Shown here: positions 2,894-61,597 of the stretch, piece after piece
Numbering within the stretch: position 1 is the first letter of the stretch
Layout of the letters: each line of letters begins with the position of its first letter
Virus record (IMG/VR): IMGVR_UViG_3300023174_000130
Span: 1-64,000 of that record
Strand: one strand, 5' to 3'
Source of the DNA: a virus
DNA length: 64,000 nucleotides
Made by a program: the position numbers and the translations under genes
The notes under the pieces: generated by a model
Database searches by the model: none
Told to the model about the DNA's origin: nothing
Seen by the model: only the letters and a program-made list of their open reading frames with translations

Positions 2894-5566
2894 TCATGAA
2901 CCAATTCGCACTGCTACTAATCCAGAAGCACTACCAGCACCCATAACGACATCGGTAGCAGATGCATAATCAACTGGGCTTGATGTTACGCTTGTTGTTC
3001 CCTGCATTTTAATTGTTGTAGTATTTGTTAAAGTTACTATTCCACTGCAAGAAACTTGAACGGCATTTCCTGTTACGCTTCCCATTCCATGGGAAGAAGA
3101 TGCATAAGTATTAGTTCCATCAGTAATTTGCAAAGAAAAAGTACGAGCAGATGTTCCTGAACCACGAACAAATGTTGCAGTAACCGAAACCATCCAAGTT
3201 CCAGACGCTAATGATAAACTTGTTATGTCAGTCCAAGTAGATGTGGACAAATTTACATTTGAACCTATGAATGATTGACCAGATGAAAGTGATAATAGAT
3301 TTGTTCCAACACCTGATGCAGTAGCAGTCAAATCAATATAAGCACCTTTGATGTTTCCACCAGTTTCAAAGAATCGAAGTTTATTTTGATATACATCTAT
3401 TGCAATTCCACCAGTTAGGCTATTTCCAGTTGCAGCTAAACCAAAATCTAATTGTCCACCTTCATTACCACCAACAGTCAATACTTTAAGATTTTGAGCA
3501 TTTAATTGGCCGGAAAATGTTCCACCAACTGCATTAAAATCCCCTGTAAATGTTGCTGTAGAACCTTTAAGCGTTCCAGAAAGAGTTACGCCATTAGATG
3601 CACTTATACCAGAAGTAAAAGATTGCAGTGCAACAAAGGTATTTGCGGTTCCTGTGGTTACTCCGGTTACTGCACCTGTTTTACCATTAAAAGATGAAAC
3701 ATATGCAGTCAATCCACTGGTTGGAGTAGACCAACTCAAAGTTCCTGAACCATTTGTGGTTAGGACTTGGTTTGCAGATCCATCGGCAGATGGAAGTGTC
3801 CAAATTTTATTTGCTGGGATGCTGCTTGGTGCTACAAATCCAACATATGTATTGCCTCCTAGTCCGACAAATTGAAGTTCAGTTCCTCCTACAAGTCTAA
3901 CAACACTTCCATTAAATTGGGCAACAGATGATTCAAATACTATACTTGTATTGGCATCGTCTATAGTTAATTTTGTTGAATTTGCATCGCCGTAAACATC
4001 ACCCATATACATTGGCTGAAATGTTCCATCAAAGAATGGAGCGCGAATGTTTAATGTTGCGGTACCGTCAAACCCTTCCCAAGTATTTGAATATATTCCA
4101 CTAGTTGAATATATAGTTGCAGCTTCTAGAGATCCTGTGGTAGTTGCCAATGCACCAGATGAAGTATTGTATATCCATCTTGGGGTAGATGTGTCTACAA
4201 ATAATCCAGTATTTCCCGGACCACTAGCAAGTGTGAAATAATAAGATGCTGATGCTGCTTCTGTAATTTGAACTCTAGAAGCACTTCCAGCAGTCAATCC
4301 ATTTGCATTTCCTGTAAGATTAGTTGCTGCACCAGAAAAACCAACAGTAGAGGATACAAGTCCTGTAAAGTTTGCAGTCGTTCCCTGTAGAGTTCCTGCA
4401 AGAGTCACACCACCAGATGCAGAAATTCCTGCTGTGAAAGATTGAAGAGCAACAAAGGTATTTGCGGTTCCTGTGGTGACTCCGGTTACAGCACCTGTGA
4501 GTCCATTGAAACTTAAAACACCAGTGTTACTGAATGTTAGTGTATTTCCAGACACACTAATACCAATTCCGTTGCCGTTGGTCAAACCAATAGCACCAGT
4601 TAATCCACGAAAAGATTCAACATATGCAGTAGCAATTGGAGATGAAAATACAATAAACAAAACTTGATGGTTGTTTGCAAATCCTGATGTCCCGGTTCCA
4701 GCAGAAGTAATTCCAGTTACTGGAATACTCGTATAAGCATTTAAAATTACTGTTGGAGCGGAATTAATTCTCCAAGTTTGGTAATTATCTGAATTATTGG
4801 CATCTTGAATTATTAAATTATCATTTTGCTTGAGCAATGAAAGAAATATGTCAATGTCATCCCCAGTGTTGTCTAAATGGTCAACATATAGTACTGTTGA
4901 ACTAGTTTGGGTAGCATTATTATATCTTATTTCACCATTTCCAGTAGGTGGAGTCTGAGTTGTCGTATGAATTTTATAACTGTAATAATTTGAAGATTGT
5001 CCTGGTTCACCTTGTTGACCAGTTGCACCAGTGTTTCCATTATTACCAGTATTACCTTGTGGACCTGTTGGACCTGTTGTTCCTGTTGAACCAGTTGGAC
5101 CCGTTGTTCCTGTTGAACCAGTTGGACCTGTGGGACCAGTTGGACCTGTTGTTCCTGTTGAACCAGTTGGACCTGTTGTTCCTGTTGTTCCTGTTGAACC
5201 AGTTGGACCTGTTGTTCCTGTTGAACCAGTTGGACCTGTTGTTCCTGTTGTTCCTGTTGAACCAGTTGGACCTGTGGGACCTGTGGGACCAGTTGGACCT
5301 GTTGTTCCTGTTGAACCAGTTGGACCTGTTGGACCCGTTGTTCCTGTTGAACCAGTTGGACCTGTTGTTCCTGTTGAACCAGTTGGACCAGTTGGACCAG
5401 TTGAACCCGTTGTTCCTGTTGAACCCGTTGTTCCTGTTGAACCAGATGGACCAGTATTTCCCGATCCAGTGGTTTTGTCCCATGCAACACCATTATATGT
5501 CCAAAGAATACCACCATATGAATAGGTTGCGCCAGCAGAGGGAGATGGGGGGAAATCAATAGGCAT
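2894..5566 (-). CDS. collagen-like (G-x-T) fibre protein, 890 aa
   Basis: N-terminal PIDFP...WTYNGVAWD motif, long GPT/GST/GTT tract, repeated VxSFNGxTG motifs, [24 protein letters not shown] fibre motif. Confidence 0.8.
5016..5465 (-). repeat. tandem 9-nt-unit repeats encoding GPT/GST/GTT triplets
   Basis: Repeated (+ strand) cctgttgtt / cctgttgaa / ccagttgga units. Confidence 0.95.
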
Positions 5567-5583
5567 TGTTCTTAATATTTATG

Positions 5584-60529: not shown

Positions 60530-60613
60530 ATTCTATTATAGCATATAATTTAATCTATTCAATATATAAAAGAGTCTAAATATTCTTGAAGAAGAAATTT
60601 AAAGGATAAAAAT

Positions 60614-61597
60614 ATGCCATTTCCATCACCTTATTATGGATCAGATTACGTAGTAATTAATAGCGGAGGCACCTTTGCCGTAGGTGCAGACCCTGTTACC
60701 AATATTTCTGGTGGCTATTCATACTATGTACAGTACTATAAATTGGGATTCGGTGCTACTGGTGCGTTTACTCCAGTTACTTCCAGCAATCCTTTCCCTG
60801 TAACCGTTGCAACTGGCCTAACAGCAACAATTTCTGGCTTTTCTGGCCCAATATCAATTGTAGGAACTGTAGGTGGACAGGCTGTTACAGTAGGGGGAAG
60901 CGTAGTTGTATCAGGTCTAACAGCATCTCCTGTATATGTACAAACTGCACCTAGCTGCAGAGTAGAAGTTACTGGTGGAAGATATTTAAGTAGACTTAAT
61001 GACAGTGTTTCTGTTTTTGGACCAAGTGGAAGTACTTGGCTATATGCAAATCTAGTAGATAGTACGGGAACTCCAATTGGAAGTTCTGGTAACCCAATGT
61101 ACACCAACATAATTGGTGCAACTATTAGCGTTACGATTAACCCCACCGTTGGTGTGACCAATCAATCTGGAACTGCCCTTAGAGTACAAGGGTTTACTGG
61201 TGGCACACCACTTTCAACAACTGTAGGCAATACTGTTGGAATTAATGACACCGCAATTCTTGCATCTATGGCAGGAATAAGCAATCAACTTGGAACTTTA
61301 AATACAAATCTTGGAACTCTTGGAATTAGCAGACCAACCACGTTTATCAGTGGTAGATTAACCGCTACAACTGGTGTAACTGGATTATATCCTGCTGGAT
61401 ATACGACAATTTCTGGTATTAATATTAAAGCATCGTCATCCAATACCGATCTTGTTTATATAAACTCTGACGGTGTAGCTTCAATTGGATATGAATTGGA
61501 TCCAGGACAAAATATATTCTTAAATGTTCAAAATCTTAGAACCATTTATTTAAGAGCAAAAACTTCTTCGCAAGTAGTTTCTTACATGGCTAGCTAA
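60614..61597 (+). CDS. Gly/Thr/Ser-rich virion structural protein
   Basis: Late promoter TAAATA at 60577 and AAGGA SD; VQYYKLGFG..G..TPV.SSNPFPV motif; beta-rich C-terminus. Confidence 0.65.
   Translation: MPFPSPYYGSDYVVINSGGTFAVGADPVTNISGGYSYYVQYYKLGFGATGAFTPVTSSNPFPVTVATGLTATISGFSGPISIVGTVGGQAVTVGGSVVVSGLTASPVYVQTAPSCRVEVTGGRYLSRLNDSVSVFGPSGSTWLYANLVDSTGTPIGSSGNPMYTNIIGATISVTINPTVGVTNQSGTALRVQGFTGGTPLSTTVGNTVGINDTAILASMAGISNQLGTLNTNLGTLGISRPTTFISGRLTATTGVTGLYPAGYTTISGINIKASSSNTDLVYINSDGVASIGYELDPGQNIFLNVQNLRTIYLRAKTSSQVVSYMAS

Follow-up and report, generated by a model that had tools for sequence, protein, structure and literature searches.

A candidate SgtA/BclA3-like protein O-glycosylation system centred on the fibres of an uncultured aquatic T4-like phage

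The closest described counterpart of the locus treated here is the SgtA/BclA3 pair of Clostridioides difficile. SgtA is an enzyme of 358 aa that combines a GT-A domain with four tetratricopeptide repeats (TPR), and its gene lies immediately upstream of bclA3 (PMC7157674). In vitro, as given in Tables 1 and 2 of that paper, SgtA transfers N-acetylglucosamine (GlcNAc) in beta-O-linkage onto Thr, and also onto Ser, of G-P-T-type peptides, including a single G-x-T/S-G site. We describe a comparable arrangement in a 64,000-bp stretch of DNA (the window), which represents bases 1-64000 of an 83,215-bp IMG/VR contig from an uncultured aquatic T4-like myophage. The window contains a gene for a family 2 glycosyltransferase with a predicted TPR-like domain (GT2-TPR, 16738-17961, minus strand), with collagen-like fibre genes downstream. 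Compared by architecture and gene order, the window enzyme shares with SgtA the GT-A plus TPR build and the place upstream of a G-x-T-rich collagen gene. The substrate here would be a predicted phage tail fibre and not a spore coat protein, the enzyme is 407 aa long and bears a long C-terminal helix, a separate 13-gene sugar island is present, and the T4-like relatives of the phage point away from a Firmicute host.

Other described systems share parts of this arrangement. GmaR of Listeria monocytogenes, likewise a glycosyltransferase with TPR, puts GlcNAc on flagellin (PMC9638930). Together with SunS and ThuS, GmaR (structures 22ao, 7msk, 7msn and 7msp) has a GT-A domain and a TPR or helical domain like the window enzyme, and glycosylates proteins or peptides. 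GmaR carries an extra antirepressor domain. SunS and ThuS modify Cys of small bacteriocins. Their PDB titles read 'glycosin S-glycosyltransferase'. Among phages, Freeman et al. in 2023 are said to have found that mycobacteriophage-encoded glycosyltransferases modify the phages' own structural proteins; these cases are reportedly siphoviruses that infect Actinobacteria, and the targets are capsid and tail-tube proteins, unlike the collagen-like fibres that are the candidate targets here. Pelagimyophages and cyanomyophages have hypervariable tail-fibre regions with glycosyltransferases and collagen triple-helix repeat proteins (PMC7029224). The authors read the transferases as modifiers of the host O-chain and drew no connection between them and the collagen repeats. 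The fibre cluster here differs from theirs in being placed between regA and the DNA polymerase region, with the sugar island located in the interval from gp55 to uvsY. A literature search, which left most subscription journals outside its scope, found no paper on the pairing of GT2-TPR with collagen-like fibres in phages.

The enzyme itself is well defined at the level of its domains. Pfam places PF00535 at residues 9-97 (E 5.1e-13), and the AlphaFold 2 (AF2) model, with a predicted local distance difference test score (pLDDT) of 90.6, has a GT-A domain at about residues 1-165 with a Rossmann-like beta/alpha fold, TPR-like helical repeats at 178-345 and the C-terminal helix at 352-391. The preliminary description of this DNA had named a GT2-TPR enzyme in the window, and the Pfam match and the modelled helical domain bear this out. 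The DxD motif, D91-A-D93-D94, is invariant in 27/27 aligned homologues. At E<=0.01, the only sequence matches in the PDB are GmaR and SunS/ThuS (four distinct sequences), ranging from GmaR (22ao) at E 3.8e-10 down to 2e-5. In Foldseek, ThuS/SunS come first (E 5e-15, about 380 columns, 17-20% identity), and the next GT-A enzymes, RmlT, TarS and TarP, follow at about 1e-7, seven orders of magnitude behind. The helical part matches consensus TPR proteins (9qhc, 8chy, 9qhb) and the TPR of OGT (1w3b) at E of about 1e-5 to 1e-6. The NCBIfam SunS model scores 32.7 bits against a cut-off of 350, and the enzyme is therefore not a SunS equivalog. A crude test for transmembrane-like (TM-like) segments, using a 19-residue Kyte-Doolittle window with a mean of at least 1.6, detected none. 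Together, the domain matches and the model support a soluble enzyme of predicted GT-A plus TPR build, whose nearest solved relatives glycosylate proteins or peptides.

The family is large, yielding 1767 database relatives at E<=1e-3, and the best 120 are 65-94% identical to the window enzyme. At the same threshold only 11 of 50,697 phage records match. They comprise a Tunturiibacter phage of 309 kb, four large records from uncultured phages and several short contigs (Listeria, Enterococcus and faecal), and none is labelled as a T4-like cyanophage. The records of T4 and of C48C1, S-SKS1 and S-WAM2 have no match at E<=1e-3. In the 77-nt gap that separates GT2-TPR from the phrog_1084 and fibre genes, a sigma-70-like site is present on the minus strand at 16712-16741 (TTGATA, 18 nt, TATAGT; 10/12).

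The genes downstream of GT2-TPR, all on the minus strand, encode one small protein and four proteins with collagen repeats (PF01391). Next to the enzyme lies a gene for a small conserved protein of 132 aa (phrog_1084, 16262-16660, E 5.6e-13). It is followed by a fibre protein of 1788 aa (10894-16260, PF01391 E 1.9e-38) that combines (G-x-T)n tracts with a long non-collagen C-terminal part, and by a fibre protein of 1254 aa (7111-10875, E 2.8e-32, also DUF2345) with (G-x-T)n tracts and [FL]-N-G-x-T-G-x-[IV] units. The third gene encodes a collagen-like protein of 505 aa (5584-7101, E 1.1e-26) of a charged G-x-K/D/E/Q type, whose tract contains no Thr, and the last a fibre protein of 890 aa (2894-5566, E 2.2e-23) with an N-terminal (G-[PST]-T)n tract. 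Collagen tracts with Thr at the Y position are thus found in three fibre proteins, those at 2894-5566, 7111-10875 and 10894-16260. The pattern (GGNNNNACN)x5 has 151 matches in this genome versus 0 in S-SKS1, S-WAM2, C48C1 and T4; matches are found in the 1788-aa fibre, and in the 890-aa fibre gene they lie at 5067-5443. BclA-like proteins have characteristic terminal domains, with an exosporium-targeting N-terminus and a C1q-like C-terminal domain. On the fibres of the window, Pfam found only Collagen and DUF2345.

The linkage of enzyme and collagen gene is nearly constant among close relatives. In a set of 40 viral loci, each with a homologue of 65% identity or more, 37 extend for 2 kb or more downstream. 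A collagen open reading frame (ORF) follows the enzyme on the same strand in 36 of these 37, and the median distance between them is 699 bp. In 30/37 a tract has Thr in the Y position of 40% or more of its triplets. The phrog_1084 gene comes after GT2 in related loci, and homologues of the charged 505-aa protein occur in most of them. The fibre genes vary widely in number, length and order.

An independent set of loci was obtained by searching IMG/VR for eight consecutive G-x-T codon triplets, giving 80 loci among the matches listed. The control consisted of 79 new loci with eight collagen triplets in which no third codon begins with A, so that Thr is not at Y in the matched run. Homologues were called by tblastn with the 27 aligned enzymes at 1e-5. 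A GT2-TPR homologue is present in 10/80 of the listed (GxT)x8 loci versus 0/79 of the control loci (Fisher p 0.0014), with similar amounts of DNA compared, 664 kb and 690 kb respectively. A profile search of whole records found the enzyme in 14 of 36 GxT records versus 1 of 47 control records, and in records below 120 kb the counts are 11/30 and 1/47. Among the positives are giant-virus bins as well as phages of 28-221 kb, and their enzymes are only 23-35% identical to the window enzyme. Giant-virus bins with GxT collagen tracts (G013 and G020; locus L092) have ORFs of about 1000 aa with a GT2-TPR-like region (profile E 1e-67 to 1e-102). The sole control positive is a 113-kb provirus record (L331, G067) with a strong match (E 1.2e-97).

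The pairing also extends to bacteria, in which 588 stretches of the enzyme family were confirmed. The best 80 loci are 31-38% identical to the window enzyme and belong to Actinomycetota, Chlamydiota, Myxococcota, Pseudomonadota and others. A Thr-type collagen tract lies in the flanks of 35 of these best 80, often within 1-2 kb. Four bacterial loci (L372, L400, L368 and L373) have the enzyme homologue adjoining very long G-x-T collagen ORFs, with 595 and 413 consecutive G-x-T triplets in a proteobacterial metagenome-assembled genome (MAG) and Bradyrhizobium, and 76-84 in an Actinomycetota MAG and Streptomyces. In the viral sets, the pairing of GT2-TPR with GxT collagen is frequent, but not obligatory.

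On this basis, we lean modestly towards a system like SgtA/BclA3 in a T4-like phage, with protein O-glycosylation centred on the fibres. For the acceptor, the sugar, the timing, the role of the sugar island and the effect on the virion, we infer the following. The soluble GT2-TPR would add the first sugar to Thr, perhaps also to Ser, in G-x-T-G contexts, and its main targets would be the long (G-x-T)n tracts in the three fibre proteins whose genes come directly downstream. Glycosylation would take place in the cytoplasm of the host, either ahead of fibre assembly or in its course, and the TPR domain would hold the protein substrate. The AT-rich sugar island may provide modified, possibly methylated, nucleotide sugars and elongating transferases, which is a weaker link in the scheme. 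The scattered G-x-[ST]-[GA] sites of the sheath, the baseplate-region proteins and the small fibre-like proteins may be secondary acceptors, and may equally be a turn motif of the lineage.

Several observations weigh against this assignment. The linkage in 36/37 related loci represents inherited synteny and not 36 independent events. Among the listed GxT loci, 70/80 have no GT2-TPR in the flanks examined, and 22/36 GxT-bearing records, many of them fragments, have none either. The bacterial figure of 35/80 stands without a control set, and high-GC genomes yield spurious G-x-y tracts in other reading frames. The enzyme has no collagen gene beside it in six loci (L051-L055 and L057) from a distant T4-like lineage. 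Its neighbours there are the dUTPase and polymerase genes, and no fibre gene intervenes. In favour of the assignment, 2/5 records of this kind have GxT tracts some 10-11 kb further downstream, the other three records being 13-22% complete. The TPR call rests on the model, as no Pfam TPR family is found in the enzyme at E<=0.01. In promoter scans bearing on the timing of expression, sigma-70-like sites in 2500-19000 are not above shuffles (67 versus 57.7 +/- 7.6), and the T4 late-promoter word TATAAATA occurs 7 times versus 10.3 expected. Finally, the sugar island is tied to GT2-TPR by neighbourhood only, being 6 kb apart with seven replication genes between.

A wider scope was claimed in the preliminary description, which proposed that G-x-T/S had been selected as an acceptor motif across the whole virion. 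In a refined form of that reading, the same enzyme would also use isolated G-x-[ST]-[GA] sites in exposed parts of the sheath, capsid, baseplate-region and fibre-like proteins, so that much of the outer surface would be coated with O-glycan, possibly methylated. The tripeptides listed there are present in the proteins named. The plain motif was counted against a null model in which collagen runs of at least 4 triplets were masked and residues shuffled within each protein. In the 16 named virion proteins, 55 G-x-[ST] were seen versus 44 expected, an observed/expected ratio (O/E) of 1.25 (z 1.7), and in the 13 named non-structural proteins 29 versus 22 (O/E 1.32, z 1.7). The 13 island proteins gave 15 versus 17 (O/E about 0.9) and 33 other proteins 72 versus 72 (O/E 1.0). 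An excess is found in 10 unnamed proteins of the structural module (63 versus 41, z 3.9) and in the non-collagen parts of the fibres (134 versus 100, z 4.4), and consists of G-x-T, not G-x-S. The raw density is 1.24-2.2 per 100 aa in structural proteins versus 0.46-0.96 in the others, because structural proteins are richer in Gly, Ser and Thr. A scarcity that had been noted by eye in gp45, gp46, gp47, gp55 and UvsW is real as far as the low counts go (1, 3, 0, 1 and 5), but these are near what composition predicts (1.8, 2.6, 1.4, 0.6 and 2.8).

Comparison with other phages gave the same outcome. In nine core virion proteins, the density of G-x-[ST] per 100 aa is 1.45 here (O/E 1.38), 1.43 in S-WAM2 (O/E 1.30), 1.16 in S-SKS1 (0.99), 0.73 in C48C1 and 0.75 in T4, and the non-structural O/E is 1.25-1.76 in all five phages. 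The plain motif fails to set this phage apart, because a cyanophage that lacks GT2, S-WAM2, matches its density. Selection of G-x-T/S across the whole virion is thus not upheld: with composition controlled, the core proteins are above neither the non-structural proteins nor the GT2-lacking cyanophage.

The narrower motif, G-x-[ST]-[GA], behaves differently. It is enriched in the non-collagen fibre parts (56 versus 19.4 expected, 2.9-fold), in the 10 unnamed structural-module proteins (29 versus 6.4, 4.5-fold, z 9.3) and in the 16 named virion proteins (13 versus 6.4, 2.0-fold), with the background groups at expectation or below (non-structural 2 versus 2.2, island 0 versus 1.6, others 10 versus 10.2). 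The reversed motif, G-x-N-[GA], G-x-V-[GA] and G-x-T-[not GA] show no enrichment in the same counts, so the signal is directional and not mere local composition. Masking runs of at least 3 triplets leaves the signal in place (unnamed 20 versus 5.6, fibres 53 versus 18.0, named virion proteins 11 versus 6.1). Masking runs of at least 2 G-x-y triplets removes it by construction, since every G-x-[ST]-G is such a run, and was not counted as a test. When ORFs above 600 aa or with any 3-triplet run are dropped, this genome has 21 sites versus 16.2 expected, which is not significant, and 22 of the reversed motif; under the same filter two related genomes, G006 and G007, keep O/E of 1.66 and 1.79. This filter removes Gly-rich proteins selectively, and represents a limit of sensitivity and not a refutation. 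The fibre sites are partly the repeat [FL]-N-G-x-T-G-x-[IV]; outside the fibres, no wider consensus surrounds the motif, and 30/42 sites are isolated.

The sites are unevenly distributed among proteins. The 1788-aa fibre has 18 in its non-collagen part versus 7.0 expected, the 1254-aa fibre 21 versus 5.7, and the phrog_1084 protein 3 versus 0.5. The tail sheath gp18 (44294-45619, minus strand, 441 aa, PHROG tail sheath) is the richest named virion protein, with 15 G-x-[ST] versus 9.0 and 6 G-x-[ST]-[GA] versus 1.6 expected, and it holds 6 of the 13 sites of its group. Its orthologues in G006, G007 and G008 have 6, 4 and 4 sites versus 1.0-1.5 expected, at positions partly turned over. The major capsid protein gp23 (37124-38572, minus strand, 482 aa, phrog_138 E 2.7e-149) is weakly motif-rich, with 10 G-x-[ST] versus 6.4 (p 0.09) and 3 G-x-[ST]-[GA] versus 1.3; four of the ten plain sites fall in columns that are gapped in all four GT2-lacking phages. 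Ten of the 16 named virion proteins have no site. The motif is absent from the portal, scaffold, protease, tube paralogue 43221-43748, gp15, wedge, and gp25-, gp48-, gp4-, gp54- and gp26-like proteins; the two tube paralogues have 0 and 1. Among orthologues, terminase and gp46 have no sites and the portal has 0-1.

Several of the richest proteins carry no family name. On the minus strand of the baseplate region, a protein of 669 aa (53294-55303, no PHROG or Pfam match), which the preliminary description called the hub, has 6 sites versus 1.0 expected (z 5.3). Its orthologue set in three genomes has 8, 8 and 11 sites (G006 8, G007 11; about 1 expected), with only 2 columns in common. The adjoining protein of 290 aa (55305-56177, minus strand, no PHROG match) has 3 versus 0.6, and 3/3 of its sites are kept in G006 and G007. 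On the plus strand, a Gly/Ser/Thr-rich protein of 327 aa (60614-61597) has 19 G-x-[ST] versus 11.2 expected (p 0.002), in agreement with the earlier estimate of more than ten, and its 38 aligned homologues have 5-10 G-x-[ST]-[GA] each versus 2.2 expected. From motif counts and fold it may be a small spike or fibre, as a lead only. Its AF2 model is poor (pLDDT 63), ESM Atlas returned unnamed viral clusters with weak spike or shaft leads, and the best match of its C-terminal jelly-roll (238-327) is the PM2 spike P1 (Z 9.0, root-mean-square deviation 2.4, 82 aligned), near background. Next to it, a protein of 440 aa (61600-62922, plus strand, no PHROG or Pfam match) has 6 versus 0.5 (z 7.5), with only 1 and 0 in its G006 and G008 orthologues. 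The directional motif is therefore real in a subset of proteins, namely the fibres, the sheath and several unnamed baseplate-region or fibre-like proteins, and is not virion-wide.

Across genomes, the motif is enriched in the T4-like group that has the enzyme. The genome-wide O/E in five T4-like genomes that have the enzyme (this one, G006, G007, G008 and G001) is 2.39, 2.08, 2.07, 1.51 and 1.58, with 3-5 ORFs each at Poisson p<1e-3. T4, C48C1, S-SKS1 and S-WAM2 have O/E of 0.83-1.17 and no significant ORF. The O/E is 0.80-1.34 in seven unrelated phages that combine GxT collagen with a GT2(-TPR) match and 0.99-1.38 in seven control phages, again with no significant ORF. Co-occurrence of motif and enzyme, which the preliminary description had raised, thus holds in 5/5 related genomes with the enzyme and 0/4 without, but in 0/7 unrelated enzyme-bearing phages. 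The five positive genomes represent at most two independent lineages, and a gp23 search of viral contigs recovered only close relatives (77-94% identical), with no sister phage lacking the enzyme. Contigs whose genes are 77-99% identical are common in IMG/VR samples. The enrichment is a real property of this T4-like group, concentrated in fibrous and peripheral proteins, and it does not travel with the enzyme outside that group.

We regard the wider coat as unlikely. The enrichment of peripheral proteins over the non-structural and island background, its direction, and the isolated sites that lack an extended consensus are what such a coat would leave, and sites that turn over while density holds fit it as well, as in the 53294 orthologues and in gp23 of the distant lineage G001 (7 sites versus 1.3 expected). 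SgtA, moreover, takes single G-x-T/S-G sites in short peptides, as its published peptide tables list (PMC7157674). Set against this are the plain-motif counts, the many named proteins without a site, the unrelated phages, the strict filter, the small number of lineages, and the fact that several motif-rich proteins have no assigned place in the virion. The named core proteins are also equalled by those of the GT2-lacking S-SKS1 (13 versus 6.8) and S-WAM2 (14 versus 8.3), whereas 25 structural proteins of T4 (including gp7, gp10, gp12 and fibritin) give 16 versus 15.4 and C48C1 gives 3 versus 5.9. In the cyanophages lacking the enzyme, gp14 is motif-rich, with 6 versus 1.1 in S-SKS1 (L002, 4797-6272) and 3 versus 0.9 in S-WAM2 (L003, 3634-4767), and G-x-[ST]-[GA] can therefore build up without GT2-TPR. 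The statistics may equally be expected from a lineage-specific turn motif in fibrous proteins; they are suggestive for the virion-wide claim and cannot decide it. Similarly doubtful is the broader picture of a widespread aquatic T4-like lineage in which G-x-[ST]-[GA] has spread as a minimal acceptor to the sheath, capsid insertions, baseplate-region proteins and several fibres. Such a lineage would clothe much of its particle by means of one SgtA-like GT2-TPR and a swappable island, with a variable, possibly methylated O-glycan that evolves like an O-antigen, and a phage with a contractile tail would thereby have a glycan coat.

The sugar island provides the grounds for a different explanation. 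It is an AT-rich block of 13 ORFs on the minus strand between gp55 and uvsY (24011-33785), with a GC content of 0.27-0.29 versus 0.33-0.41 elsewhere in the window. The preliminary description had counted 12 genes; the island and its sugar enzymes stand in Pfam, with the count corrected to 13. Nine of the 13 ORFs have Pfam matches and four have none. The transferases are a PLOD-type glycosyltransferase, a GT47 exostosin-like protein and a Nucleotid_trans protein, and the other enzymes are three FkbM-family methyltransferases, two SDR dehydratase/epimerases and a weak UDP-sugar-dehydrogenase match. No such island exists at that point of synteny in S-SKS1, S-WAM2 and C48C1, and its content differs among relatives. 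The distant T4-like lineage has the enzyme gene at the end of an island for sugar synthesis, which comprises GT2, Polysacc_synt_2, two methyltransferases, a DegT aminotransferase, an FdtA-like protein and epimerases. This union of enzyme and island in one block, together with the neighbourhood in the window, suggests that the island may serve in sugar supply, elongation and methylation.

The PLOD-type domain, of a kind linked to collagen hydroxylysine, lies at 25575-26282 (PF25342, E 4.6e-20), and the charged collagen at 5584-7101 has many G-x-K triplets. A hydroxylysine route, in which this transferase would act on the Lys-rich collagen, was considered and rejected: the 83-kb record, whose completeness CheckV puts at 46%, contains no PF13640 or PF03171 oxygenase.

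The island, perhaps with GT2-TPR, could instead modify the host envelope (an O-chain or other surface glycan), blocking superinfection or changing recognition, with G-x-T being purely structural. The low GC and the variable content of the island resemble O-antigen loci, and the FkbM methyltransferases are accompanied by a weak match to RfbT of Vibrio cholerae (E 5.9e-4, below the family cut-off). Phage O-antigen modification systems comprise a flippase, a bactoprenol-linked transferase and a serotype-specific membrane transferase. Among GT2-TPR and the island proteins, neither a flippase, polymerase, ligase or polyprenol-phosphate transferase nor any other membrane protein is present, and a TM-like window is found in 0/13 island proteins (0/14 counting GT2-TPR), by a crude test in a 46%-complete genome; O-unit transferases are often soluble or peripheral, and such a result is compatible with them. 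Modification of the host O-chain is also the published reading for related aquatic T4-like phages (PMC7029224). We nevertheless consider this explanation improbable, as proteins or peptides, not lipid-linked glycans, are the substrates of the solved enzymes closest to GT2-TPR, and as it leaves the association with GxT collagens (10/80 listed versus 0/79, and the adjacency in bacteria) unexplained.

Glycosylation of a host protein by GT2-TPR (of a pilin or flagellin receptor, for example), so as to exclude competing phages, is highly improbable. GmaR does act on flagellin (PMC9638930), a cyanobacterial Ogt is reported to modify a pilin (10.1101/2021.07.06.449578), and TPR domains bind protein substrates; yet the collagen ORF that follows the gene in 36/37 related loci encodes the phage's own fibres, and unrelated viruses and bacteria also combine the enzyme with GxT collagens. 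Hypermodification of phage DNA with sugars, as in T4 glucosyl-hydroxymethylcytosine and newer glycan-DNA systems, can be set aside almost entirely: two reports describe glycosyltransferases of phages that attach varied glycans to DNA (10.1101/2023.12.21.572611, PMC13326640), and a dUTPase/dCTP-deaminase-like gene and a weak DUF1599 match lie nearby, but Pfam scans of 30 island and flank proteins from this 46%-complete genome found no hydroxymethylase, TET/5mYOX or GT-B alpha/beta-glucosyltransferase, and the GT2-TPR architecture and collagen linkage point to a protein substrate.

If fibre-centred glycosylation by GT2-TPR is true, the receptor-binding organelles of abundant uncultured aquatic T4-like phages would carry sugars set by a hypervariable island. 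Fibre glycosylation would then bear on host range, protease resistance and non-specific adsorption. The glycosyltransferase 'auxiliary metabolic genes' of marine and freshwater phages, which are usually read as O-antigen modifiers (PMC7029224), would need a second look. More broadly, Thr-type collagen-like genes accompany the GT2-TPR family in phages, in giant-virus bins and across many bacterial phyla, and we therefore predict a general modification system for collagen-like surface fibres. SgtA/BclA3 is the one in vitro-assayed case of such a system that we found.

The remainder of the window agrees with a T4-like phage. Megablast of 10 kb from the structural module against the 50,697 phage records gave no match, and relatives were reached by protein search, the nucleotide search being empty. 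The major capsid protein is about 52% identical to those of Synechococcus T4-like phages. PHROGs and Pfam name gp23, gp22, gp21 and gp20, two tail-tube paralogues, the short sheath (441 aa), gp17, gp16, gp15 (47739-48410), gp14 (48392-49069), gp13 (49071-49901) and baseplate proteins, along with gp32, UvsY, UvsW, gp55, gp47, gp46, gp45, gp44, gp62 and RegA. The gene order agrees with S-SKS1, S-WAM2 and C48C1 except for two insertions. The first is the sugar island in the gp55/uvsY interval; the second, after regA, contains the GT2 gene, the phrog_1084 gene and the four collagen-repeat genes (2894-17961), and stops at a dUTPase-like gene and the DNA polymerase. The dUTPase/dCTP-deaminase-like protein (2319-2840) adjoins the DNA polymerase gene in both T4-like lineages. 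So does a small protein at 676-1017 with a weak match to DUF1599, 'nucleotide modification associated' (E 7e-4, below cut-off). The two tail-tube paralogues adjoin each other (43221-43748 and 43752-44294), and a third tube-like protein is encoded at 57455-58063. The sheath, with only 441 aa, is short compared with the 659 aa of T4. Just past the window, a minus-strand ORF of 2278 aa (64200-71036) has 30 G-x-[ST] versus 29.3 expected, unlike the fibres.

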